The notes beneath the pieces are model-generated. The model was not told where the DNA came from. It did no database searches and saw only the letters and a program-made list of their open reading frames with translations. A stretch of 64,000 nt of DNA. It comes from an uncultured archaeon (GTDB lineage: Archaea; Aenigmatarchaeota; Aenigmatarchaeia; Aenigmatarchaeales; Aenigmatarchaeaceae). The translations under genes and the position numbers were made by a program. This document shows positions 2,849 to 54,050 of this stretch, one piece after another (the first letter of the stretch is position 1; each line of letters starts with the position of its first letter). The stretch is from positions 55,645 through 119,644 of the forward strand of contig CAZSPB010000003.1 in NCBI GenBank assembly GCA_964608725.1, read 5' to 3'.

Positions 2849-5248
2849 TTATATTCTCACACTTATTTTTATAGGATATCCTTCAACTTCTAAATCTCCT
2901 TCTCCAAATTCTAAATTCTTTACTTTCATAGTACCTTTTATATCATCAAAAAATCTTTCTAGTCTCTTCATTATTACTTCATCACATTTTATAGTAACCT
3001 TTTCCAAAGGTGCATTTAAAGCTAAACCTCTCCTGCTTTTGTACTTCCTAAGGAAAGATATTATCGCAACTACAATATCTCCTATCTCTTCTGCATCTTT
3101 GTCTATAAACTTTTCATTCACTTTTGGCCATTTTGAAACATGAATTGAAATATCTTTTTCAACGTTTCTAAAGTAAATTTGCCACATTTCTTCTGTTATG
3201 TAAGGTATTATAGGGGCTAACATTTTATTAACATTTAAAATTAGATTATATAAAGTGAAAAGAGCAGCATCCTTATTCTTATTTTCATACAACCTATATT
3301 TTATGATTTCAATATAATTGTCAGCAACATCATGCCATAAGAATTTGTGTAAAACTTCAAATGCTCTTGAAAATTGAAAATTTTCATAATAATAAGTTAC
3401 TTCTTTAATGACTTTTTGAAGTTTCGTTAATATCCAATAGTCTATTAAAGTTGGTTCAGCTTCTTTAAAATCTTTCAAGTGCATTCTAGAAAATCTAAAA
3501 ACATTCCACAACTTCGTTAAAAATCTGAATGTGAATTCCATATCTTTCCAAGAAAATGGGACATCATTTCCATAAGCCCCCATCATGATAAGGCCAGCTC
3601 TTATCACATCAGCCCCATGTTTTGATAAGACATCATCAGGCATAACAACATTTCCTAAACTTTTATGCATTTCTCTCCCATCAGGCCCAAGAATCATCCC
3701 ATTTATTAATATTTTTTTCCATGGTTTCATTTTCGTTTCAAGAAAACATCTTAAAATAGTGTAATAGGCCCAAGTCCTTATAATATCATGACCTTGCTGT
3801 CTCAAATCATTTGGATAAAGCTTTTTAAACAATTCATCATCTTTCCAATAACCAGAAATTACTAATGGTGTTATTGAAGAATCTATCCAACCATCACACA
3901 CATCACTTTCTCCAATTATTTTACCACCGCAATCACATTTTTTCAATTTGTACTCCTCTATAGCTGGGTTAACTGGTAAATCTTTTTCTTCTGGTAAATA
4001 TATTTTTCCACAAGATTCACAGTACCAAAAAGGAATTGGGGTTCCATAAACTCTTTGTCTTGAAAATATCCAATCCCAATCCATAGAATCAATCCAATTT
4101 AAAAGTCTCTTTTTCATGTATTCAGGATACCACTCTATATTCTCAGCTATTTCTTTTATTTCTTTTGAAAATTTCACAGCATCTATTGCCCATTGTTTTT
4201 TAGTTAAAAATTCTATTGGATTTAAACAAGTTGATCTTTCAGTGTGACAAAGAACATTATGCTTAAATTTTTCTTCTTTCTCTAGAAAACCAAGAATTCC
4301 AAGTTCTTCGGCTATCTTTATTCTAGCATCTTCTATTTTCATTCCTTTAAACTTTCCTGCATTTTCATTTAACCTACCATCTTCTGTCACAATGTTTATA
4401 GCTGGTAGGCCATATTTCTTTTGCCATTTTATATCAGACTCATCCCCATAAGTACACAAGTAAACAGCACCGCTTCCAAATTTCATATCAACTTCAGGGT
4501 TAGTAAGAATTGGAACTTCTCTATTAAATATAGGAAGTTTGGCCTTTTTGTTAACGAATTTTTTATATCTTTCATCTTTAGGATTCACAAAAATTGCAAC
4601 ACAAGCTGGAAGCATTTCTGGTCTTGTTGTTGCAATAGTTATAAAGCTTTCTTCTACAGGAAACTTTATGTAATAAAGAATTCCTTCTCTCTCAATGTAA
4701 CCAACCTCTGCTTTTGCAAGTGTTGTTTTACATTTTGTGCACCACATAACCGGATGCTCAACTCTTTTTATCAAACCCCTATGATACAAATTTAACAAAG
4801 TTTTTTGAACGAATGCTTTGTATTCTTTACTATCACTCCTATATTCAAAATCCCAATCAGCAGAATACCCCATTTCTATCATTTTATTTTTCATCTTCTT
4901 TATGCAATCTTCTGTCCAAATTTTACATAATTCTAAAAACTTCTCTTTATCCTCCTTATTCACATTAAAATTCTTTTCAACTTGTAGTTCAGTTGGCAAA
5001 CCATGGCAATCCCATCCTTGAGGGAGCAAAACGTTAAAGCCTTGCATCCTTTTAAATCTTGCTATGACATCATTCCAAGTCCACCATAAAACATGGCCCA
5101 TATGAGGTACTCCAGAAGTAAATGGAGGGGGAGTATCTATGATAAAAGTAGGTTTATCACTTTTTCTATTAAATTTGAATATTTTATTCTCTTCCCAAAA
5201 CTTTCTTATCCTAGGCTCCACTTCTTTAGGATTATAAACTTTTTGCAT
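2849..5248 (-). CDS. valS: Valyl-tRNA synthetase (class I)
   Basis: 'PPPFTSGVPHMGH' HIGH-type motif and a 'KMHKSLGN' KMSKS motif; a 799-aa length fits archaeal ValRS. Confidence 0.6.
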   Translation of the reverse strand: MQKVYNPKEVEPRIRKFWEENKIFKFNRKSDKPTFIIDTPPPFTSGVPHMGHVLWWTWNDVIARFKRMQGFNVLLPQGWDCHGLPTELQVEKNFNVNKEDKEKFLELCKIWTEDCIKKMKNKMIEMGYSADWDFEYRSDSKEYKAFVQKTLLNLYHRGLIKRVEHPVMWCTKCKTTLAKAEVGYIEREGILYYIKFPVEESFITIATTRPEMLPACVAIFVNPKDERYKKFVNKKAKLPIFNREVPILTNPEVDMKFGSGAVYLCTYGDESDIKWQKKYGLPAINIVTEDGRLNENAGKFKGMKIEDARIKIAEELGILGFLEKEEKFKHNVLCHTERSTCLNPIEFLTKKQWAIDAVKFSKEIKEIAENIEWYPEYMKKRLLNWIDSMDWDWIFSRQRVYGTPIPFWYCESCGKIYLPEEKDLPVNPAIEEYKLKKCDCGGKIIGESDVCDGWIDSSITPLVISGYWKDDELFKKLYPNDLRQQGHDIIRTWAYYTILRCFLETKMKPWKKILINGMILGPDGREMHKSLGNVVMPDDVLSKHGADVIRAGLIMMGAYGNDVPFSWKDMEFTFRFLTKLWNVFRFSRMHLKDFKEAEPTLIDYWILTKLQKVIKEVTYYYENFQFSRAFEVLHKFLWHDVADNYIEIIKYRLYENKNKDAALFTLYNLILNVNKMLAPIIPYITEEMWQIYFRNVEKDISIHVSKWPKVNEKFIDKDAEEIGDIVVAIISFLRKYKSRRGLALNAPLEKVTIKCDEVIMKRLERFFDDIKGTMKVKNLEFGEGDLEVEGYPIKISVRI

Positions 5249-5848: not shown

Positions 5849-6557
5849 ACTTTTTCAGTCCAGGTTTTGGTAAATTTTCAGTATCTATTTCAACTAATTT
5901 TCTATTTATAGTGAAACAAACGTTAAAGACTGGAATAGAATCAACAAAAGCTAAAGGTATTCCATAGTGTGCATGTCCATGAACAGCAAAAGTTGGCTTT
6001 GTCTTAATAAGAACTTTCTCAAGTTTTTTACTCCCTAAGCCACCATAAACTCTAGGATCTTCACCTTTTAATGTTTTATAAGTTGGTGAATAATGAGTAA
6101 GTAGAATTTTTATATCAGTTTTCAAATTTTTTAGTAAAATTTCTATTTTCTTTATCCTTTCTTTGTAAATGTCTTTAATCCCTGGTATGTGAGATGATTG
6201 CCACCAAGTAGGGACATCTAAAGAACCTCTAGAACCAACTATTCCAACTTTTTTATTTTTTATTTTTAAAACTATACTTTCATCATTCAAAAACTTTATT
6301 CTCTTTTTGCAAACTTTCTTTATCTCATCTATATCTTCATCAAACTCTCTGTTTCCAAAAACAGCAACTATTGGACACTTCCACTTCCTTAATTTTATAA
6401 AATCTAATATTAGGCCATACAATTCAGGAGAACGAAATTCGTACATATCTCCAGCAAAAAGCAAAAGATCTGGTTCTTTTGATTCTCTAATCATTTTATA
6501 AAAAGGTTCTAAATCTACACCAAGAGGATCAAGATCTGAAATAGCTTTGACAATCAT
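5841..6557 (-). CDS. Calcineurin-like metallophosphoesterase
   Basis: 'GDMYEF', 'GNREFD' and 'HGHAHYG' metallophosphoesterase motifs. At 238 aa it is too short to be Mre11. Confidence 0.55.
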   Translation of the reverse strand: MIVKAISDLDPLGVDLEPFYKMIRESKEPDLLLFAGDMYEFRSPELYGLILDFIKLRKWKCPIVAVFGNREFDEDIDEIKKVCKKRIKFLNDESIVLKIKNKKVGIVGSRGSLDVPTWWQSSHIPGIKDIYKERIKKIEILLKNLKTDIKILLTHYSPTYKTLKGEDPRVYGGLGSKKLEKVLIKTKPTFAVHGHAHYGIPLAFVDSIPVFNVCFTINRKLVEIDTENLPKPGLKKYV

Positions 6558-7608: not shown

Positions 7609-7692
7609 GGGCCGGTAGCTTAGCCTGGTGGAGCGCTCGGCTGATATTAAATAGAAACCGAGAGGTCGCAGGTTCAAATCCTGCCCGGCCCA
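7609..7692 (+). tRNA. Intron-containing tRNA, probably tRNA-Ile (GAU) with a ~10-nt intron after position 37
   Basis: 84 nt. Acceptor GGGCCGG/CCGGCCC, D-arm GCUU..GAGC, anticodon stem CUCGG/CCGAG enclosing 17 nt (CUGAUA + 10 nt + A), T-arm GCAGG-UUCAAAU-CCUGC. Confidence 0.6.
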
Positions 7693-17921: not shown

Positions 17922-18014
17922 TGGGCCCGGCCGGATTTGAACCGACGTTACCAGCACCCCATTCCAGCAGTTAAACTGTAGCTGGTGTCCTAGACCAAGC
18001 TGAACGACGGGCCC
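17922..18014 (-). tRNA. Intron-containing tRNA (93 nt; ~18-20-nt intron in the anticodon region; anticodon unresolved)
   Basis: Reverse complement gives acceptor GGGCCCG/CGGGCCC, D-arm GUUC..GGAC, anticodon stem CCAGC...GCUGG enclosing 25 nt, T-arm GUCGG-UUCAAAU-CCGGC, discriminator A. Confidence 0.6.
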
Positions 18015-24425: not shown

Positions 24426-24586
24426 TGCGGAGGGCAGGATTTGAACCTGCGAAGGGACTAACCCACAGGATTTCTTTCATCTTTTGATCAAAACTTAAGA
24501 GCCAAGTCTTAAGTATCGCACAGCTGTCCTGCGCCTTTGCTCATGTTCGCTATGCGAACATATTGACCTGGCTTGGCTACCTCCGC
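24426..24586 (-). tRNA. Type-II-like tRNA (Leu/Ser class) with ~85-100 nt of intervening sequence; exact intron positions unresolved
   Basis: Reverse complement: acceptor GCGGAGG/CCUCCGC, discriminator A, D-arm 'UAGCCAAGCCAGGUCAA', T-arm GCAGG-UUCAAAU-CCUGC, and a variable-arm-like hairpin GGG-UUAGU-CCC. Confidence 0.5.
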
Positions 24587-43795: not shown

Positions 43796-44110
43796 ATGGT
43801 GAAAAGAATAACAATAAATGTAAATGATTTATTATATGAAAAGATTCAAAAAATAAGAGCAGATATAATAAGAAGTTTAAGAAAAAATGTTAGCTTTGCG
43901 GCTGTATTTAATGCTGTTGCTTTTGGTGGATTATTGGCAGCTGATAAATTTACTGAAGCTGACTGGAAGTTAATATATTCATTTATTAAAGAATTCGTGA
44001 GATCAGAAAAAGCTAAAAGGCTACCAGAAAAAAAATTCGCGAAAAACATAATTGAGGTAGAAAAACGAATACAAATGATGATAAAAGTTAAACAAATAGT
44101 GAGAGAATGA
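43796..44110 (+). CDS. Hypothetical protein
   Basis: 104-aa ORF. Confidence 0.25.
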   Translation: MVKRITINVNDLLYEKIQKIRADIIRSLRKNVSFAAVFNAVAFGGLLAADKFTEADWKLIYSFIKEFVRSEKAKRLPEKKFAKNIIEVEKRIQMMIKVKQIVRE

Positions 44111-44538
44111 TATTACTCACTATTATCTTGGGTTTAATTATAATCTTTTTAATATTTGTTATACATCATTACAGAAAACAGATAGAAAAAGCGGAAGAAG
44201 AGATAATTAAACTTAGAGAAACTAAATTTTCAAAAGCATTTAGTCTTGGTAGTAACCAAATAAAGGGCTTCTTTGCTCAAATTCTTGGAACCTTCGCAAT
44301 GCTAAATGAGTATGATGAAATAATAATTCTTTCTACCACTTCAAAACAACCTTCACTTGATTTACTAGGAATAAAAAATGACTCACTTGATTTTATCGAA
44401 TTGAAGAAAAGTGGTGCAATGTTGACTTCTAATGAAAGAAAAATTAAAAAACTTGTAGAACAAAAGAAAGTTAAATACAAAATAATAGATGTTGAATTGC
44501 CAGAAAATACGACAATTAAAGAGAGGATTAAAAAGTGA
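44107..44538 (+). CDS. Membrane-anchored small protein with a PD-(D/E)xK-like nuclease motif
   Basis: N-terminal TM helix; the 'SLDLLGIKNDSLDFIELKK' D..(E)LK pattern resembles Mrr/Hjc/VRR-NUC catalytic cores. Confidence 0.3.
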   Translation: MILLTIILGLIIIFLIFVIHHYRKQIEKAEEEIIKLRETKFSKAFSLGSNQIKGFFAQILGTFAMLNEYDEIIILSTTSKQPSLDLLGIKNDSLDFIELKKSGAMLTSNERKIKKLVEQKKVKYKIIDVELPENTTIKERIKK

Positions 44539-44542
44539 TCCC

Positions 44543-45889
44543 ATGGTATCCCTAACCTTCTATGGAGGAGTTAACGAAATAGGAGGAAATAAGATACTAC
44601 TTGAAGATAAAGGTGCGAGAATATGGTTTGATTTTGGCCTATCTTTTAAGAAAGGCCAGAAATTCTATACAGGATTTTTAACAGCAAGAAGAGCAGCTGG
44701 TTGTGCTGATGATCTTGAGTTAGGAATAATACCAAGGATAGAAGGTTTGTATTCAGAAGAAATGTTGAAATTCACTGATTTGAAGTATAAAGAGCCTGAG
44801 TTCGATGGAATAGTTATATCTCATGCTCACATGGACCATTGCGCGCATTTGCAGTACATAGATGAAAAAATACCAATTTACCTTGGAGAAACAACTCATG
44901 CAATAATTAAAACAATAGAAGAAACTAGCTCTGGAGTAAAATTTGGTGAGCATAAGTATAGAAAATTCAGAACAGGTAATAAAATTACTATAGGAAGTGT
45001 TGAGATTGAGCCTATTCATGTTGACCACAGCATTCCAGGTGCTTACGGTTTTCTTATTCACACAACAGAAGGAACAATAGTTTACACAGGAGATATAAGG
45101 TTTCATGGCCCTGCTGCAATAATGAGTATTGAGTTCATTAAAAAAGCTAAGGAATCAAGGCCAATTGCCTTAATAATTGAAGGTACAAGGTTAGGGAGAG
45201 AAGAGAAAACAGAAAAAATGACTGAGGCTGATGTTCAAAGGCTTGTTTGCAAAATATTAAAAAGAACAAGAAAGTTCGTTGCAACAACATTTTATGGAAG
45301 GGATTACGATAGGATAATGAGTTTTTACCATGCTTCATTGAAATGTGAGAGAAAATTTACTGTTTCAATGAGGACTGCTCATTTATTGAATAAGCTAAAG
45401 CATGATAAAAGGTTGAATTGTCCTGATCCATTGAAAGATCCGAACATACTGATATACATTAGGAGGAAGAAGAGTTACTATAAGTGGGAAAGGCCTTACA
45501 TTAACTCTTCTAATGCTGTTAACTATGAATGGATAAGGAAGAATTTTTCAAATGTTCTATTGAATCTTGATCTTTACAATTTTGCTGAGCTTGTTGATAT
45601 AAAGCCTGATGGTGGAGATTTTATTCATTCGATGTCAGAACCTTTTGTTGAAGGTGGGTTGGATCAGATTGAGCAAGAAGTTATGTTGAATTGGCTTGAG
45701 CATTTTAATTTGAAATTTCATCAGGCCCATGCATCTGGCCATTGTTCTGTTAAGGATTTGGGAAAGGTTGTTAGATTCATCAGCCCTAAGGTTGTGATTC
45801 CTGTTCACACGGAGAATGCTAGATTATTTAGAAAGTTTGGAGTAAAAGTGAAACAGTTAAAGAGCGAAAAAGTTAAAATTATGGTTTAG
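44543..45889 (+). CDS. rnj: Archaeal RNase J-like beta-CASP metallo-beta-lactamase ribonuclease
   Basis: 'GGVNEIGGN' RNase J N-terminal signature, the 'HAHMDHCAH' MBL motif and downstream beta-CASP His/Asp residues. The ATG at 44543 is preferred over the longest ORF. Confidence 0.65.
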   Translation: MVSLTFYGGVNEIGGNKILLEDKGARIWFDFGLSFKKGQKFYTGFLTARRAAGCADDLELGIIPRIEGLYSEEMLKFTDLKYKEPEFDGIVISHAHMDHCAHLQYIDEKIPIYLGETTHAIIKTIEETSSGVKFGEHKYRKFRTGNKITIGSVEIEPIHVDHSIPGAYGFLIHTTEGTIVYTGDIRFHGPAAIMSIEFIKKAKESRPIALIIEGTRLGREEKTEKMTEADVQRLVCKILKRTRKFVATTFYGRDYDRIMSFYHASLKCERKFTVSMRTAHLLNKLKHDKRLNCPDPLKDPNILIYIRRKKSYYKWERPYINSSNAVNYEWIRKNFSNVLLNLDLYNFAELVDIKPDGGDFIHSMSEPFVEGGLDQIEQEVMLNWLEHFNLKFHQAHASGHCSVKDLGKVVRFISPKVVIPVHTENARLFRKFGVKVKQLKSEKVKIMV

Positions 45890-45915: not shown

Positions 45916-46635
45916 TTACATTTTTTTCGATAATTCTTCTAAAGCTGTAATAATATAATTTATTTCCATTCGAATTTGCTCCATGTAAATGTTAGCCAAA
46001 AAATTATGTGCGGCAGCATCACCTAGAAATTTACTTCTTTTCAAATGAATTGCCGTCTTTGGCGAAATATAAGGGGTGCCATCTTTTCCTTTTTCTCTTG
46101 AGGCTATATTAATCATTTTTTCTAACCCAACAATTTTTTTATGATTTGATGGGTCATTTAACTTTTCAATCATACCTTGTTTTGCAAATGCAAAGTAAAT
46201 GGACTTTTCTATTATTCTTCTTAAAAGAAATGCTGTACAATTGCCACTTTTATTCCAGACTAAATTCAAATCGTTAAAATCTATCTTAAATTTTTCTCCA
46301 AGCTTTCTGAGTAGTTTCTTTGGAAAAAAAGCAAAAAAGGTATTTGGAGTATTTCGTTCTTTAAACTTAACCCAAGAACCATACCATATTCTTTTACCAT
46401 CAACAAATTCGGTTTTTACTATTCCATTTTTTATAAAAGGTTTCATATAGGTAATAACTATACTACTTTTTATTCTTTTTAGCGTGGCGTTCCTTAACTT
46501 TTTAGCAATTTCGCAAGAGTACATTGGTGTATGAAGTATCTCATTTTTAAGAATAAGATTCTTAATTTCATTATATAGAGAGTCTTTTTTAAATTTCATC
46601 TTCATTAATTTTTTTCTAGCTTCTGCGAATTGCAT
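45916..46635 (-). CDS. Hypothetical protein (accessory; possible HEPN/Abi-like C-terminal region)
   Basis: 239 aa; 'RSKFLGDAAAHN' loosely resembles an R-x(n)-H HEPN-type motif. Last gene of a 3-gene minus-strand operon. Confidence 0.25.
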   Translation of the reverse strand: MQFAEARKKLMKMKFKKDSLYNEIKNLILKNEILHTPMYSCEIAKKLRNATLKRIKSSIVITYMKPFIKNGIVKTEFVDGKRIWYGSWVKFKERNTPNTFFAFFPKKLLRKLGEKFKIDFNDLNLVWNKSGNCTAFLLRRIIEKSIYFAFAKQGMIEKLNDPSNHKKIVGLEKMINIASREKGKDGTPYISPKTAIHLKRSKFLGDAAAHNFLANIYMEQIRMEINYIITALEELSKKM

Positions 46636-47042
46636 TATTTCACTTTTTTAAAATTATTTTCAACATATTTTTCTCCAGAATTAGTGAGTTGAAATGCCTT
46701 AAACCCCTCTTTTTCGCCAACTTCCATTATATAGCCTTTTCTTATATTCAAATTTATTTTATCATTAATATTAAGGGGAATTTTTTCCCTTGCCTCTATG
46801 AAGATTTTTTTAAGATCATTCTTATTAAAAGGTGTTAATCCCTTATATTTTTCTAGATAATAACCCATTGCTAAGGTTTTGTCGGTATCACTGTTAGGAT
46901 TTTTTTCATTTAAAAATTCTCTTATTGATAGAGGTTTAATCACAGGGGTAGATTTTCTGAATAAACCTTCTAATTCTGATAATCTCTTTTCATGATTTTT
47001 TAAAATAATTTTAATTCTTTCTATCTCATCCATAAAAACCAC
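46635..47042 (-). CDS. Hypothetical protein (middle gene of 3-gene operon)
   Basis: 135 aa; start/stop overlaps with its neighbours. Confidence 0.3.
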   Translation of the reverse strand: MVFMDEIERIKIILKNHEKRLSELEGLFRKSTPVIKPLSIREFLNEKNPNSDTDKTLAMGYYLEKYKGLTPFNKNDLKKIFIEAREKIPLNINDKINLNIRKGYIMEVGEKEGFKAFQLTNSGEKYVENNFKKVK

Positions 47043-47045
47043 CGT

Positions 47046-47321
47046 CTAATTTAATTTTTTTACCCTTTTATATCTCCATTTTTCTTGTCCTATCCTCTGT
47101 TCTTTAGATAGTTTTTCACGTTCTAACCCTATGGAAGAATCTCTACACATCAATGTTAACTGCCTATTAACCGCACCAATTTGTCTACCTTTGAGAGTGA
47201 ACCCACGAGCTGATAATTTTTTAATGACTTCGATTGAGGTTTTAGGTGTATCAAAAAAACCATCATCCACCAATTCTTTCAAAATTTTCTTTATCTTCAT
47301 ATTATATTTAATACAGCTCAA
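47046..47321 (-). CDS. Small winged-helix transcription regulator
   Basis: 'SIEVIKKLSARGFTLKGRQIGAVNRQL' wHTH-like. Confidence 0.35.
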   Translation of the reverse strand: MSCIKYNMKIKKILKELVDDGFFDTPKTSIEVIKKLSARGFTLKGRQIGAVNRQLTLMCRDSSIGLEREKLSKEQRIGQEKWRYKRVKKLN

Positions 47322-47362
47322 GGGTATTTAAACTTTTCTATTCCTTGTTTTATTATGTGAAT

Positions 47363-47449
47363 TATGAAAAAATCAATATAAATCAAGAGAAAATCGGGAC
47401 AGTCAATTAAATTTGCATATTTTTAATGAGTTACTTATTAATGAAAAAG
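47363..47449 (+). repeat. Direct repeat copy 1 (87 bp; frameshifted duplicate of the 5' end of the gene at 47642)
   Basis: Matches 47641-47725 except for one extra A in the 'ATGAAAAAATC' run. Confidence 0.8.
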
Positions 47450-47640
47450 CGAAGAAATTTTGTTTGTTAAGAATTTTTTGATAAAAAATATGAATTTTTA
47501 ACGTGAAAAAAGTTTAAGTATATTCTACATCTGAAAAAAACATAATGTTCATAATTTCCTTTTTAATTTGTATCGAAAAACTTATTAAGAATATTTAAAG
47601 ATACAGTAAAATTTAAATATTTATTATTTATTATAAATAT

Positions 47641-47725
47641 TATGAAAAATCAATATAAATCAAGAGAAAATCGGGACAGTCAATTAAATTTGCATATTTT
47701 TAATGAGTTACTTATTAATGAAAAG
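47641..47725 (+). repeat. Direct repeat copy 2 (85 bp; includes the start codon and first ~28 codons of the regulator gene)
   Basis: Identical to 47363-47449 apart from a 1-nt indel. Confidence 0.8.
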
Positions 47726-48085
47726 GAATTGTTAATTCAACTTGTCGAAAGGTTGAAAAATAAAGTTAAGTTCTTAGAAGGATCTTCATATCCCATTTTT
47801 CTAATTGACATGAATAGACTAGTAAATGAGGAAAAAATTGCTTTATGGTTAATTACAAAATTTATCTTAAAAAAAATTGGTGCTGTTGAAAATGAAGATA
47901 TGTCTATTGATGAATTAGAGGAGAAATGTAGATTAAGTAGAAAAATTATTATAGCAAGGCTAAAAGACTTAAGAGATAAAAAAATAATTGAAAGGACTAA
48001 AGGAATTAACTTTAGGATAAATTTACCTGCTGCAATTTTCATTTTAGATAAAATAGATAAGAGACTTGAAAAGGAAATTAACTAG
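47642..48085 (+). CDS. HTH DNA-binding protein (putative regulator at the head of the R-M/defence block)
   Basis: 'MSIDELEEKCRLSRKIIIARLKDLRDKKIIER' HTH-like segment. Confidence 0.4.
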   Translation: MKNQYKSRENRDSQLNLHIFNELLINEKELLIQLVERLKNKVKFLEGSSYPIFLIDMNRLVNEEKIALWLITKFILKKIGAVENEDMSIDELEEKCRLSRKIIIARLKDLRDKKIIERTKGINFRINLPAAIFILDKIDKRLEKEIN

Positions 48086-48183: not shown

Positions 48184-48993
48184 ATGGAAGAAAAAGTAAA
48201 TGATTTAGATCCGAAAAAATGGAGAGAATATGAAAAGGAAGGATTACAATTTTTTACAGTATGGGATACACCCGAAAGAGATCCTTATAATTGGACAAAT
48301 TACACAATTCATGGAAATTCACCAGTAGAAATAGTAAGACAATGTATTCTTAGATTTTCAAGGAAAAATGACTTAGTTTTAGACCCATTCGTTGGCTCAG
48401 GAACAACTTTAATTGTATGCGCAAGAGTAAAAAGAAGAGGTATAGGAATAGAAATAAACCCTAATATAGTAAAGATAATTAAAAAAAATTTTGCACAAAA
48501 GGGATTAGAAAAAGAATATAATGAGTGGTTAACAAAGCAAAAAATTATTTGTGATGATGCAAGAAATCTTAAGAATTATGTGAAGGATAATTCTGTAGAT
48601 ATGGTATTTACACATCCGCCTTACTGGGATTTGATTAATTATAGTAAAGAATATGGGATGGTTAAAGGGGATTTATCGAATATGAGTTTTGAAGAATTTT
48701 TGAATGGCATAGAAGAAGTTTTTCAACATATTTACGATGTACTTAAAAAAAATAAATTCTTTTGTGTTTTAATTGGGGATGATTTCAAAGAAGGAGGAAA
48801 AGTTATCCCTCTTGATTACTATTTAACAAAAATCGGATTAAATGTCGGTTTTGAATTTTATACAAAAATAATCAAAATAACTAGAGAGGCAACTTCAAGA
48901 AGAAACCAGATTAATATTATGAAGTATAGATCTTTAAGAAACAACTTTTTTATATGCATTCATGATTTTGTTCTTATATTTAAAAAGGTATGA
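48184..48993 (+). CDS. DNA amino-methyltransferase (N6-adenine or N4-cytosine), gamma-class motif order
   Basis: Motif I 'LDPFVGSGTT' precedes motif IV 'THPPYWD'. Confidence 0.7.
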   Translation: MEEKVNDLDPKKWREYEKEGLQFFTVWDTPERDPYNWTNYTIHGNSPVEIVRQCILRFSRKNDLVLDPFVGSGTTLIVCARVKRRGIGIEINPNIVKIIKKNFAQKGLEKEYNEWLTKQKIICDDARNLKNYVKDNSVDMVFTHPPYWDLINYSKEYGMVKGDLSNMSFEEFLNGIEEVFQHIYDVLKKNKFFCVLIGDDFKEGGKVIPLDYYLTKIGLNVGFEFYTKIIKITREATSRRNQINIMKYRSLRNNFFICIHDFVLIFKKV

Positions 48994-49949
48994 AAATGAA
49001 ACATGAAGAAGTTGTAGAAGTAGTGGCAGAATGGTTCAAATCCAACCCAAAAGTAATTTTGGTAGGTAAATGTTCCGGAGACTTTCCTGAACCTGATATA
49101 TATGCACAATTTAAAGATAATAGTATAGGGTTTGTAGAATGTAAACCAAGTGATGTTGGAGGTAGAGAATATTTAACTGGCTTTGGGCAAGCAATAGCTT
49201 ATGCCACACTTTCTAACTACTCTTTTCTAGCGATACCAGAAAAAGAGATGAAAAAGTATAAAAAATATTTTTGGGTTGAATTAATAGGTTTATTAGCAGT
49301 AAGAGAAAATGGCATTGTTAAAGTAATAAGAAAGGCTAAAAAGATAGAACTAAAATCAGTCCATGAAAGAAGGACCCGGGCTTATGGATATTATAGAGAC
49401 CTTCATCCTTATGAAATTCATCAGATCCTAGAATCAATCACTCATAGTAAAAATGAATCTTCAAGAAAGAAAGAAATATGGAAAACCATTTGTAAATTGA
49501 GAAACATAAAAAGTATGAAACAGAGGAATGCATGGATACTTAATGTAAAACTCCTTTTAAGAGATCTTGGTTTGGTTAATTATGATCTATCTCTCACAGA
49601 AAAAGGATTTTATTTACTACAAGTTGGTAGATCAAGAAATAAGAAATTATATCTCTCTGAGTTAACACGATGTTTTCTTATAAACGCCAATTATCTCGAA
49701 TTGTTAGCATTAATTCAAAGGTTAAATGACATATATACAGCATTTAGTACTGTAAAAAAATTTAAAATGTTATTAGCAAAAGAAATATTAAAAGAGAAGT
49801 TAGCCACAACACAGACAAATATAATGAGAGATTTACAAGATATACCTAGAATATTGAAAGAACTCGGTCTCATAAATGACTGGCAAAAGCATGGATTTGG
49901 ATACAGATATACTATTAATTGGGATAAAATAACCAAATTGCTAAAATAA
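48990..49949 (+). CDS. Candidate Type II restriction endonuclease (PD-ExK)
   Basis: Start overlaps the MTase stop (ATGA). N-terminal 'EPDIY...GFVECK' PD-(D/E)xK motif. Confidence 0.45.
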   Translation: MKMKHEEVVEVVAEWFKSNPKVILVGKCSGDFPEPDIYAQFKDNSIGFVECKPSDVGGREYLTGFGQAIAYATLSNYSFLAIPEKEMKKYKKYFWVELIGLLAVRENGIVKVIRKAKKIELKSVHERRTRAYGYYRDLHPYEIHQILESITHSKNESSRKKEIWKTICKLRNIKSMKQRNAWILNVKLLLRDLGLVNYDLSLTEKGFYLLQVGRSRNKKLYLSELTRCFLINANYLELLALIQRLNDIYTAFSTVKKFKMLLAKEILKEKLATTQTNIMRDLQDIPRILKELGLINDWQKHGFGYRYTINWDKITKLLK

Positions 49950-51546: not shown

Positions 51547-53025
51547 TCACATAAACGCTCTCACATCTCTCCTTCTCTGCTCTCTTTCTTCAACAGCCTC
51601 CTTCCACTCTTTCAAAACATCAGGATCCTTTCCCATCAACTTTCCCAAAAACTTGTCTATTTTAACTAAAGCTGGAATTTTAACCATCGGCCCTAGAACA
51701 ATTGCTTCACCAACGTTCAAAGATGGCAAATGTTCCATCAACTCATTGCTTAAAGCTTCACTAGCAGCCTGAACATGTCTTTGATCTCCAGGTTCAACCA
51801 ATTTTAAAATTATCATGTTATTAACTTGTGATAACGCATCAGCATCCAAAGCTTTTGGCCTTTGACTAACTAAGCACAAACCTACTCCAAATTTTCTTCC
51901 CTCTCTTGCTATCCTGCTTATGTAATATTTTGATAAAGTACTCCTGTTAGCAGGAGCCAAAATATGAGCTTCCTCAAGAACAATAAAAATAGGTGTTTTC
52001 AATCCTTCTCCTTTTCTCCTATAATTCTTCCTCTCTTCAAGTATCTTTCTTAAGCAATGACTAACAATAACATCTGCCCCATCCTCATCTATCAAACCAA
52101 GATCAATTATGTTAACCTTTCCATAGCTTATTCTATCTATTATATCTGAAACTTTCATATCAAATATCGAGGCCCTATACTCAAGCATGTCATCAAGCTT
52201 ATTCTTAACAGCAACTATCCTATTCTTATCAGACTTATAACTCTCATTTTCCAAAAGATTATCAAGCTCTTTTTGCATTGCATCAAAGAACCCTTCTAAG
52301 CTCATTAAACCTCCTCTTTTCCTGAACTCTTTCTCTGCTTTTTGATAAGCCATTCTAAAATATCTATATTGGATATAAGCATCACTCCATATGTTTGCAA
52401 GGCCAGCTGCTTCACTTATTGACAAATTCAATGGACTTATCTTTGTTTCTATTATATTTTTCTCTCCATTTGGAAAGTTTGCATCCACATACTCAGAATG
52501 CATATCAAATATTAAAACAGTTCCATTGTATTTCAAAAGGCCATTGACTATGACAGCAACAGCATTGCTCTTTCCTGCTCCAGTTAAAGCAAGAATGGAA
52601 AGATGCCTGTTAACTATCTTATTTGCGTCAATAAAAACAGGAACATCTTCCTGAGTTATCAAATTCCCTAACTTAACACCACTTTCTCCAAATATTTTTT
52701 TCAAAATTTCAGGATCAGCTTTCTTAACCTCTGTTCCTGGTGTTGGAGGTGTTCTAGGTATTTTTAGATTCTCAATATCACCAAGAATTTTGATAAAACC
52801 TTTTATGTAATACTCATCACCTTCTATTTCCTTTATCTTTTCAACAACTTTAGGGTCAAAGATATCATCTGTTATGCTAGGGCTTCCCCTAACTAAAGCT
52901 TCAATCATTCCAAGAACCTTTTTTCCATCATACTCAAGGATAACATATTCTCCAACTTTTGGCATTTTCTTTGAAACAAATTCAACTCTAGTTGGCAAAG
53001 CTTCTCCTATACACCTTCCAATCAT
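51547..53025 (-). CDS. herA: HerA-family (DUF87/FtsK-HerA) ATPase
   Basis: N-terminal HAS-barrel-like segment, Walker A 'LTGAGKSN', Walker B 'IFIVLEEAH'. Confidence 0.7.
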   Translation of the reverse strand: MIGRCIGEALPTRVEFVSKKMPKVGEYVILEYDGKKVLGMIEALVRGSPSITDDIFDPKVVEKIKEIEGDEYYIKGFIKILGDIENLKIPRTPPTPGTEVKKADPEILKKIFGESGVKLGNLITQEDVPVFIDANKIVNRHLSILALTGAGKSNAVAVIVNGLLKYNGTVLIFDMHSEYVDANFPNGEKNIIETKISPLNLSISEAAGLANIWSDAYIQYRYFRMAYQKAEKEFRKRGGLMSLEGFFDAMQKELDNLLENESYKSDKNRIVAVKNKLDDMLEYRASIFDMKVSDIIDRISYGKVNIIDLGLIDEDGADVIVSHCLRKILEERKNYRRKGEGLKTPIFIVLEEAHILAPANRSTLSKYYISRIAREGRKFGVGLCLVSQRPKALDADALSQVNNMIILKLVEPGDQRHVQAASEALSNELMEHLPSLNVGEAIVLGPMVKIPALVKIDKFLGKLMGKDPDVLKEWKEAVEEREQRRRDVRAFM

Positions 53026-54050
53026 AATACCTCCCTTCCTGTTCTCTCAAAAAAACCAAAGGCCTTCACGATCTTTTCCATTTCCTTATTGCTTATTAAA
53101 ACATCATTGTGTGCTTTCTTCAACAAGTAAGGATAACCTTCAACACATATCCTTTTTATTTTTTCTAATAGCTTTTCAACATTACTAATTCTTTTAGGTA
53201 TTTCAAACTTTAAAACATTTCTTCTATCTTCTAGCCTGGCATAAAAAATTGTGAATTGAATGTTCCTGAAGAAATCATCTAATATAGGGAAGCTTCTCTT
53301 TAATCTAGCATCTATGCTACCGTAAATAGGAGATGAATAACCTTGTTTATGAGTTGATTTCTCGAATATTGCTATGTCAGGAATGTTTTCCTTGAAATAA
53401 TCTGTTGCTTGTGAGGTCTTTGCTATAGCCACTATTTTATCATTGTTCTTCAACAACTCTTTCATGCATAACAAATGCTCTAAATACTCTAAATAGCTCT
53501 GGGCCTCTGCTTTTTCTTCAAATCTTTCTTCTATTTCCTTGAAGAATTTTCTCGAAGATATTTCTATTCCATTTGAAATTTCTAGCTTAGGTAAGAATTC
53601 TTTTTTTATTTCATTTTTAACCTCAGATTTTGGATTCAACCTGAATGGTAATGGCCTTATTATGTCTCCTATTATTGAACCATCTAGCAAAGCAATATCA
53701 GCATGCTTTAAAGCTTTTAAAAGAGCTTTTGTTTCGAATATGTGCATGTAAAACCTTAACCTTTCTTTAGTGAATTTATAGGGGTATAAAATATCAATAT
53801 CGCAAGCTTTAATTGATTTCAATTTTTCATCAAATACTAATGCTTCTGAAGTCACAGCATAGATAGTGAAACCTCTAAACTCTTTGAAGTTGTAACTTCC
53901 ATCACAAGCTGCTATAGGAACCTTTTCACCTTCTTTTATCTCCTTTTCTATCCATAGCTTTTTTGCATCAAAACTTTTTAAATCAAAATTTACTTTATCA
54001 AGAATTTCCTTCTTTTTTTGAGTGAGTTTTTCAGCTATGAAGTTGAACAT
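53022..54050 (-). CDS. nurA: NurA-like nuclease
   Basis: N-terminal 'IAACDGSYNF' NurA motif I (catalytic Asp). A 342-aa size is typical of NurA, and the stop overlaps the herA start. Confidence 0.55.
   Translation of the reverse strand: MFNFIAEKLTQKKKEILDKVNFDLKSFDAKKLWIEKEIKEGEKVPIAACDGSYNFKEFRGFTIYAVTSEALVFDEKLKSIKACDIDILYPYKFTKERLRFYMHIFETKALLKALKHADIALLDGSIIGDIIRPLPFRLNPKSEVKNEIKKEFLPKLEISNGIEISSRKFFKEIEERFEEKAEAQSYLEYLEHLLCMKELLKNNDKIVAIAKTSQATDYFKENIPDIAIFEKSTHKQGYSSPIYGSIDARLKRSFPILDDFFRNIQFTIFYARLEDRRNVLKFEIPKRISNVEKLLEKIKRICVEGYPYLLKKAHNDVLISNKEMEKIVKAFGFFERTGREVL

Follow-up and report, generated by a model that had tools for sequence, protein, structure and literature searches.

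In a 64,000-nucleotide (nt) stretch of DNA from an uncultured archaeon of the Aenigmatarchaeota, hereafter referred to as the window, the start of a gene for a winged helix-turn-helix (wHTH) regulator is present twice. One copy lies in place at the 5' end of the gene. The other lies upstream, close to the predicted promoter of a divergent operon that begins with two genes named here X and p135. An initial annotation of this DNA, made from the sequence, had described the start of the regulator gene as duplicated, and the duplication is genuine, with an 80-nt core in two copies that are 277 nt apart. Here, we propose that the duplicated segment bears an operator, through which one regulator would control both the wHTH gene and the divergent X-p135 operon. 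This is a plausible interpretation of the sequence, which we put forward tentatively.

The repeat, two putative promoters and the regulator

A repeat search of the window returned a perfect direct repeat of 80 nt, in which segment 47368-47447 is identical to segment 47645-47724, with a start-to-start spacing of 277. When one indel is allowed, A6 in copy 1 and A5 in copy 2, the identity starts from a TATG at 47363 and 47641. Beyond a 4-nt substitution, which reads GTGA in copy 1 and AAAT in copy 2, TTTATTAT is common to both copies, and the full repeat comprises segments 47349-47449 and 47627-47725, which correspond to 99 nt with 95% identity. The left limit in the initial annotation was the same TATG, and the right limit was 1-2 nt too generous, as identity ends at 47447 and 47724. 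The last 2 nt of those earlier ranges need a second indel (GAAAAAG vs GAAAAG), hence their lengths of 87 and 85 nt. Copy 2 contains, as had been described, the ATG of the wHTH gene at 47642 and 28 codons. Copy 1 had been called an out-of-frame orphan, and it is indeed non-coding; its ATG at 47365 opens only the peptide MKKSI* (ATG AAA AAA TCA ATA TAA).

Matches to the repeat numbered 0 in 100 dinucleotide shuffles of the window. No third copy was found in the 64-kb window, even with 3 mismatches or with a 25-mer as the query, and a 24-mer of the repeat had 0 matches in the genome-contig and metagenome-contig collections. The search of the window for further copies, which returned just the two, speaks against a dispersed multi-copy element, a possibility that had been raised earlier. 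TRF reported no tandem array in the window. The copies are separated by a segment, spacer B, that has no similarity to the wHTH gene, the rest of the window or any fetched locus by blastn-short, and in which six-frame translation gave no open reading frame (ORF). Spacer B is rich in A-runs and T-runs on both strands. A simple head-to-tail tandem duplication was rejected for the window, since the copies cease to resemble each other beyond 47447/47724 and no part of the gene is matched by spacer B. The template repeat/variable repeat pair of a diversity-generating retroelement was also rejected, since the repeat lies at the 5' end, its core is 100% identical, and only the indel and the GTGA/AAAT substitution differ. 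No reverse transcriptase was seen among the scanned genes that neighbour the repeat.

The repeat is also seen in a separate assembly. Two Logan contigs (k=31) from run SRR7051320, which is possibly the same sample as the metagenome-assembled genome (MAG), are both 100% identical to the window. One of them stops at 47397 and the other begins at 47695, each 30 nt (k-1) inside the 80-nt core, and the A6 run is present in the left contig, L121. These breaks do not fix the order of the repeat copies. Breaks at exactly k-1 inside the core are what a de Bruijn graph produces where a repeat truly occurs twice, which makes an artefact very unlikely. The initial annotation had left room for one, and the independent contigs, which show both flank-to-core junctions of the two-copy repeat, run counter to it.

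Each copy is located beside a putative promoter, composed of a transcription factor B recognition element (BRE) and a TATA box (Table 1). The sequence suggests that the wHTH mRNA is leaderless, and copy 2 would cover about -15 to +84. Copy 1 starts 10 nt upstream of the putative BRE of the divergent operon. With both promoters read from the consensus, the identical 80-nt block is placed downstream of the TATA of the wHTH gene and upstream of the BRE/TATA of the X operon.

In the mechanism that we propose, the wHTH protein would bind a site inside the duplicated segment. Bound over its own start, it would repress itself. Bound upstream of the neighbouring promoter, it would regulate the divergent operon, either by activation or by looping to the second site. 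Both promoters could be coupled in this manner by a single protein and a single sequence, and the long perfect identity would be a by-product of segmental duplication and of gene conversion between copies that are 277 nt apart. For TrmBL1, an archaeal wHTH regulator, it is established that one protein represses or activates according to its position (PMC4706686). An archaeal wHTH regulator that is bound downstream of the TATA blocks the recruitment of the polymerase, and one that is bound upstream of the BRE/TATA can activate, as TrmBL1 does (PMC4706686). For the window, we infer the promoters, the transcription starts, the binding of the protein to the repeat and the direction of regulation.

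The 147-residue product of the wHTH gene has a winged helix-turn-helix fold in a confident AlphaFold2 (AF2) model, with a predicted local distance difference test score (pLDDT) of 93 and a predicted template modelling score (pTM) of 0.82, and it belongs to no curated family at threshold. The C-terminal half of the model has the order H-H-H-E-E. The model could be described as a winged helix between N- and C-terminal helices, of which the N-terminal helix (residues 1-28) is encoded by the repeat. The nearest folds given by Foldseek are those of MarR, ArsR and the pNOB8 AspA protein, all of them weak (whole-query template modelling score ~0.3-0.45), and there were 0 matches at E<=0.001. Look-ups of the exact sequences of this protein and of the 239-aa protein of the divergent operon gave no match. 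A k-mer homology search with the wHTH protein returned only itself, with the same outcome for its homologue P0011. HMMER found 50 distant homologues of ~130 amino acid residues (aa) and up to 34% identity. Among 31 members of this family, HTH_24 is matched by 15 and MarR_2 by 14, and TrmB models are also matched. The window protein has no Pfam match at E<=0.01, and its score with the NCBIfam Lrs14 model is 22 bits vs a cut-off of 90. The earlier label of HTH regulator is borne out by the matches of the family hidden Markov model (HMM) to HTH_24/MarR/TrmB and by the AF2 model with its Foldseek matches to MarR/ArsR. One homologue, P0013 (132 aa, on L118-L120), is encoded divergent to a type I hsdM-hsdS-hsdR operon, with an intergenic region of 143 nt.

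Duplicated gene starts in related modules

The best homologue of the wHTH protein is P0011 (28% identity), which is encoded on L003 and L004, identical contigs from two samples. The layout there is that of the window, with genes of 111, 150 and 261 aa on the divergent side of the wHTH gene. p135 shares 45% identity with the 150-aa protein, and gene X has a weak similarity to the 111-aa gene, which occupies the corresponding place. L003 has a direct repeat of its own wHTH start, which is perfect over 64 nt (77 nt at 94%) and has a spacing of 290 nt. It covers 22 nt before the wHTH ATG and 18 codons, and a weaker similarity runs on through the TATA region. Its predicted promoters are placed as in the window: TTTATAAG precedes the wHTH ATG by 26.5 nt, and next to the X-like gene there is a palindromic CTTATAAAG, with copy 1 beginning immediately beside it.

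Because L003/L004 have the same layout and a duplication of their own, the repeat lies inside a conserved module and not at its edge. The initial annotation had regarded it as a possible island boundary or integration junction. This is contradicted by the p135 operon and the wHTH gene, which travel as one module in L003/L004, and also by the lack of a third copy in the window, by the lack of an integrase found nearby and by a relative, elsewhere and without a wHTH gene, of the methylase-endonuclease pair downstream. As far as these sequences tell, the duplication is a trait of the module architecture rather than an accident peculiar to this genome.

The sequences of the window and L003 repeats are unrelated to each other. 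Either each lineage has preserved the likeness between its two copies, or the arrangement has two origins. If it is ancestral, the copies would have been kept alike while the gene diverged; if it arose twice, the two loci would have converged on the same geometry. The spacer of L003 contains, at 5849-5897, a third, inverted and diverged copy of the 5' coding segment of the wHTH gene, 73% complementary over 49 nt. L003 is the sole locus of 61 with an inverted score above background, and the window is without an inverted copy. A tyrosine integrase is found at the far end of the L003 module, 1.9 kb from the repeat. Both contigs end less than 100 nt after the wHTH stop codon (L003 6442-6542 and L004 3796-3866), which suggests a strain-variable cargo downstream of the wHTH gene, in the place that the restriction-modification (R-M) pair has in the window.

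With p135 as the handle, 112 further loci were collected from MAGs and metagenomes of many bacterial and archaeal phyla. In ~85 loci, the wHTH gene immediately precedes p135 in the same orientation, and a gene for a ~261-aa protein usually comes next. Among the collected loci, the divergent layout of wHTH and p135 is found only in the window and L003/L004, and no further case was found among 29 p135 loci without a wHTH match, even by a relaxed HMM search. For 61 non-redundant wHTH genes, the segment from -30 to +120 was compared with its upstream 400 nt by a Smith-Waterman test. A duplication of the 5' end is present in five of the 61, with scores of 74-197. A mid-gene segment used as control gave 0/61 (maximum score 27), and the count was 1/629 for the remaining ORFs of 150 aa or more at the same loci. 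Without the index case and with L008 and L081 merged, the comparison is 3/59 vs 1/629 (p ~0.002, a hand estimate). A census of 805 kb counted ~7 independent short-range direct repeats; three of them fall on the start codons of wHTH genes, a category that represents ~3% of the sequence. Both independent loci of divergent layout carry the duplication, and most of the ~85 co-directional wHTH-p135 loci, in which one promoter serves both genes, do not. A recent recombination, as had been suggested earlier, is not supported by these data as a one-off event, since equivalent, sequence-unrelated duplications exist in at least three other lineages of the family and one of them predates a strain split. 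Two repeats of other kinds were also seen among the loci. L027 has a perfect 72-nt direct repeat upstream of the operon (233-304 and 483-554, 250 nt apart), and L115 has dispersed GTCATTGCGAG-type repeats at 4201-5115.

The age and mode of duplication can be followed in some bacterial relatives. L008, L009 and L081 have a 194-nt head-to-tail duplication of the -35 box, the -10 box, the Shine-Dalgarno sequence (SD) and 23 codons (97% and 93% identity). L054 and L055, 79% identical to L008, have a single copy, so that the tandem duplication of L008 is derived; its junction consists of an ACATT microhomology. Four copy-specific differences are common to L008 and L081, which shows the duplication to be older than their split and the copies to have evolved largely independently. 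At three loci (the window, L003 and L008), what differs between the copies is clustered directly before the start, and the transcribed and coding part is identical.

Repeated elements of another kind are found in a 17-member bacterial cluster (70-83% nt identity), which includes L005, L006, L011, L053 and L111 and whose sequences are not phylogenetically independent. Between the -35 box and the SD, this cluster has ATTAT/ATTAC arrays with a period of ~9-10 nt. Synonymous codons in these 17 sequences have an identity of 0.63 over codons 11-30 and of 0.44-0.50 over the remaining gene. Two pairs, ATA ATT and GAT TAT, within codons 13-21, are invariant and match the ATTAT arrays of the promoter. 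In L045 (296-590), ATAATT...ATTATTnTAAT occurs three times, ~98 nt apart, at the -10 box, in the 5' untranslated region and at codons 13-23. The segment of codons 6-24 is likewise present there in three copies spaced by ~98 nt (86%), and TRF found no tandem array in L045. The element of L045 and of the bacterial cluster is a candidate operator for that subfamily. Taken as sequence patterns, these observations support the view that in relatives the recognition sequence of the regulator extends into its own first codons, and they are not evidence on the sequence of the window.

Operator or other origin of the repeat

Several points weigh against the operator interpretation. The duplication is missing from 56 of the 61 family members, as well as from the P0013 locus (L118-L120), which has no 5'-end repeat. 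Decayed intermediate duplicates are rare (L045 only, 86%), which fits birth-and-death as well as function, and the association of the divergent layout with duplication has n = 2 independent loci. An operator needs ~20-30 bp and not an identity of 80-100 bp; the excess identity needs recency or gene conversion, which a neutral duplication predicts as well. The spacings of 194, 277 and 290 nt are not multiples of the helical turn, and no significant internal dyad was identified in the 80-nt core of the window. Finally, the promoters were read from the consensus in very AT-rich DNA, in which TATA-like strings are common.

A broader claim is possible, if doubtful. The start region would be a functional, concertedly evolving element of a new cross-domain regulator family of defence islands, serving as a position-dependent dual operator or as an RNA decoy, in which a block of ~80-100 nt would be kept identical at both sites and regenerated independently in Bacteria and Archaea upon rewiring of the module.

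A functionless origin, the chief rival reading, is rather unlikely in our judgement. The repeat would then be a neutral, transient segmental duplication that came about by slippage or illegitimate recombination at the promoter-proximal, recombination-prone edge of a horizontally mobile module, to be homogenised for a time by gene conversion and later lost when the copies recombine. L008 agrees with such an origin, in that its junction is a simple ACATT microhomology and its upstream -35 box is decaying from TTGACA to TTGATA/TTAATA. The same can be said of the bimodal distribution in the family (clear young duplicates or none), of the breakpoints, which vary by lineage (codon 18, 23 or 28), and of the frameshifted copy 1 of the window. 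Moreover, related modules cease to be homologous directly before the promoter, which places the 5' end near a recombination junction. However, a neutral duplication leaves unexplained the geometry shared by the two archaeal loci, in which copy 1 abuts a divergent promoter, the spacer is unrelated, and the spacings are 277 and 290 nt. Close direct repeats should be deleted unless their loss is counter-selected, and the L008/L081 copy outlived a strain split. Furthermore, the window repeat is not a simple tandem, and spacer B is without a counterpart in the gene.

It is improbable that the repeat acts at the RNA level. Copy 1 would in this case be transcribed from a palindromic TATA shared with X, giving a short RNA or mini-ORF that has the same 5' end as the wHTH mRNA and serves as decoy or leader. 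Alternatively, transcription of one copy in the reverse sense would yield an antisense RNA, like that of the par locus of pAD1. In the window, as in L003 and L008, the perfect part of the repeat sets in close to where transcription is predicted to start, with the differences just upstream, and T-runs after copy 1 (47473-47478 and 47494-47498) could terminate an RNA of ~125 nt. The inverted copy of L003, if transcribed rightwards, would be antisense to the wHTH mRNA, but the window does not have such a copy. The mini-ORF of copy 1 has 5 codons in the window, 27 in L003 and 33 in L008; the small ORF is not conserved, and the frameshift of the window was confirmed in the second assembly. Folding is no better than that of shuffles, with z = -0.57 for the copy-1 transcript and z = +1.31 for the mRNA 5' end, and there is no Rfam match. 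In addition, the rightward BRE beside copy 1 is poor, and four oligo-T runs on the minus strand of the spacer (A-runs >=5) argue against leftward read-through into copy 1.

We hold it highly improbable that the repeat is a substrate or boundary of recombination, whether its copies are att-like or homologous sites that allow excision, the exchange of cassettes or on/off switching, or whether it marks the edge of an R-M/defence island. No observation speaks specifically for the cassette exchange that the initial annotation had raised. The tyrosine integrase and the inverted third copy of L003 would fit this idea; however, that integrase lies at the other end of its module, and no integrase was found near the window locus. 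Variable cargo downstream, as suggested by the contig ends of L003/L004, would also fit, although both flanks of the repeat belong to one conserved module, to which the repeat is internal. If the window copies recombined, the gene would be joined to the frameshifted A6 start and thereby inactivated, whereas deletion in L003 and L008 would leave the gene intact, so that there is no common switch logic. The repeats enclose merely 177 nt of non-coding DNA, and neither the window nor the two large contig collections gave a further copy. An assembly artefact, that is, a spurious duplication in the MAG, is extremely unlikely: the source is a metagenome-assembled contig of 146 kb, but the independent k=31 assembly has both junctions of unique flank and core and stops exactly k-1 inside the core, the copies differ by the indel and the 4-nt substitution, and the same architecture was assembled independently in two samples (L003/L004).

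If the duplicated segment is a shared operator, the window would provide a natural example of a circuit rewired by the copying of a promoter-proximal block, coding bases included, to a place beside a second promoter, with the identity of the copies maintained over long evolutionary time. If instead the duplication is neutral, it would be an ordinary, short-lived one at a recombination-prone edge of the module. The analysis brings to light a widespread unnamed module (wHTH, p135, PLD-like or other effector), the regulation of which could be addressed with a defined probe of 80 bp.

The module, its neighbourhood and known systems

The features of the locus are collected in Table 1. The window consists of AT-rich archaeal DNA (~30% G+C) with an archaeal signal recognition particle RNA, NurA/HerA and an archaeal AdoMet synthase. 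Rfam gave tRNAs that ARAGORN did not report at 7609-7692 (+), 17922-18014 (-) and 24426-24586 (-). The latter two, of 93 and 161 nt, suggest intron-containing archaeal tRNA genes.

Table 1 Features of the repeat locus, with positions in the window.
Feature	Position	Strand	Description
Third operon gene	45916-46635	-	239 aa; weak DUF4145 match
p135	46635-47042	-	135 aa; conserved core protein of the module
Gene X	47046-47321	-	91 aa from TTG or, likelier, 84 aa from ATG at 47300; first gene of the divergent operon
Putative BRE/TATA of divergent operon	47339-47325	-	AGAAAAG-TTTAAATA; TATA ends 25 nt before the X ATG at 47300; archaeal consensus
Repeat copy 1	47349-47449	+	TTTATTAT-GTGA-ATTATG-A6, then 80-nt core 47368-47447; upstream, non-coding
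Spacer B	47450-47626		177 nt between the repeat copies
Putative BRE/TATA of wHTH gene	47604-47619	+	AGTAAAA-TTTAAATA; TATA centre 26.5 nt before ATG; archaeal consensus
Repeat copy 2	47627-47725	+	TTTATTAT-AAAT-ATTATG-A5, then 80-nt core 47645-47724; holds wHTH start codon and codons 1-28
wHTH regulator gene	47642-48085	+	147 aa; family of ~130-aa winged-helix proteins (HMMER, AF2, Foldseek)
N6/N4 DNA methylase and putative endonuclease	48184-49949	+	269 aa and 319 aa; downstream of the wHTH gene

The module, which comprises a wHTH protein of ~130 aa, p135 and a PLD-like protein of ~261 aa, is found in more than 200 metagenome contigs and also in MAGs of many bacterial and archaeal phyla, often beside integrases or R-M genes; no relatives of it were found in IMG/VR. 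The window has a variant form of it, in which the third gene is another one and the small gene X is additional. Homologues of p135 with 43-59% identity are encoded in many bacterial and archaeal MAGs, and p135 has no match in Pfam, NCBIfam, PADLOC or PHROGs. Scans of family libraries gave no solid match for X, p135 or the 239-aa protein, whose gene stands where most relatives have that of the ~261-aa PLD-like protein. The latter has a weak MIT_C match, and its C-terminal domain matches the PADLOC candidate PDC-S05 with E-values of 1e-14 to 1e-17. A representative of PDC-S05 has been reported to protect E. coli from phages (preprint 10.1101/2024.09.26.614923). PADLOC gave no meaningful match for the module proteins of the window, in which the third gene differs from that of the ~261-aa protein. 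Two tandem paralogues of p135 were observed in L048 (5989-6811).

The methylase-endonuclease pair has a relative, 69.6% identical in nucleotides, at L002 566-2330, in another context and without the wHTH gene, which indicates that the R-M pair moves independently of the module. The stretch homologous to L002 spans from ~11 nt inside the methylase gene to ~75 nt short of the endonuclease stop codon. Next to the pair, on its downstream side, the window has a 162-aa gene and L002 one of 161 aa, and these two are unrelated. The scan of ORFs at 36-59 kb gave no recombinase domain. On one side of the module and R-M block (44107-45889) there are a Holliday-junction-resolvase-like ORF and a metallo-beta-lactamase/beta-CASP-like ORF with Pfam matches to Lactamase_B_2 and RMMBL. 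The other side (51547-54050) has a HerA-NurA pair. Between 41.9 and 51.5 kb, many ORFs have no family match.

The proposed arrangement can be compared with several known systems. As with TrmB/TrmBL1, the same sequence lies downstream of one TATA/start, which is the position of a repressor, and upstream of another BRE/TATA, which is the position of an activator. Lrs14 and MDR1 are archaeal autorepressors, and gal OE/OI and lac O1/O2 are bacterial dual operators with one site in the coding region. One copy of the window repeat falls within the 5' coding region, in the manner of gal OI within galE. However, known operators are motifs of 15-30 bp, whereas the blocks described here are identical over 80-100 bp, and the likeness concerns the placement of the sequence. 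Unlike TrmB, Lrs14 and MarR, the window protein belongs to an uncharacterised wHTH family, with weak, sub-threshold matches to those models.

Tandem duplication of a promoter and 5' region by microhomology slippage is exactly what L008/L081 show (194 nt, with an ACATT junction; the duplication is absent from L054). The window and L003 differ from such tandem duplications in that their copies are separated by an unrelated spacer of 177-213 nt and the upstream copy abuts the promoter of another gene. The par locus of pAD1 has direct repeats, DRa and DRb, in RNA I and RNA II; these are transcribed in opposite directions, which gives complementary RNAs. The window resembles it in that one copy of a direct repeat extends over an mRNA 5' end and the other is close by in a divergent/convergent arrangement of genes. 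It differs in that no evidence was found of opposite transcription of the copies, there is no toxin-like small ORF, and the host is an archaeon.

A further likeness is to the controller (C) proteins of R-M systems, which are Xre-type HTH proteins of ~80 aa that bind short palindromic C-boxes. As with these, a small DNA-binding gene with a repeated sequence at its own start is directly upstream of, and co-oriented with, a methylase-endonuclease pair. The identification of the wHTH protein as a C protein was rejected, given its 147-aa winged helix, its conserved partner p135 and the M-R pair of L002, which has no such gene.

Duplicated operators, tandem promoter duplications and position-dependent archaeal regulators are thus known already. 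What seems to be new is the recurrent duplication, in one unnamed regulator family and in both domains, of promoter-proximal and N-terminal coding sequence, and, as it seems, the identical archaeal geometry of two anciently diverged loci.

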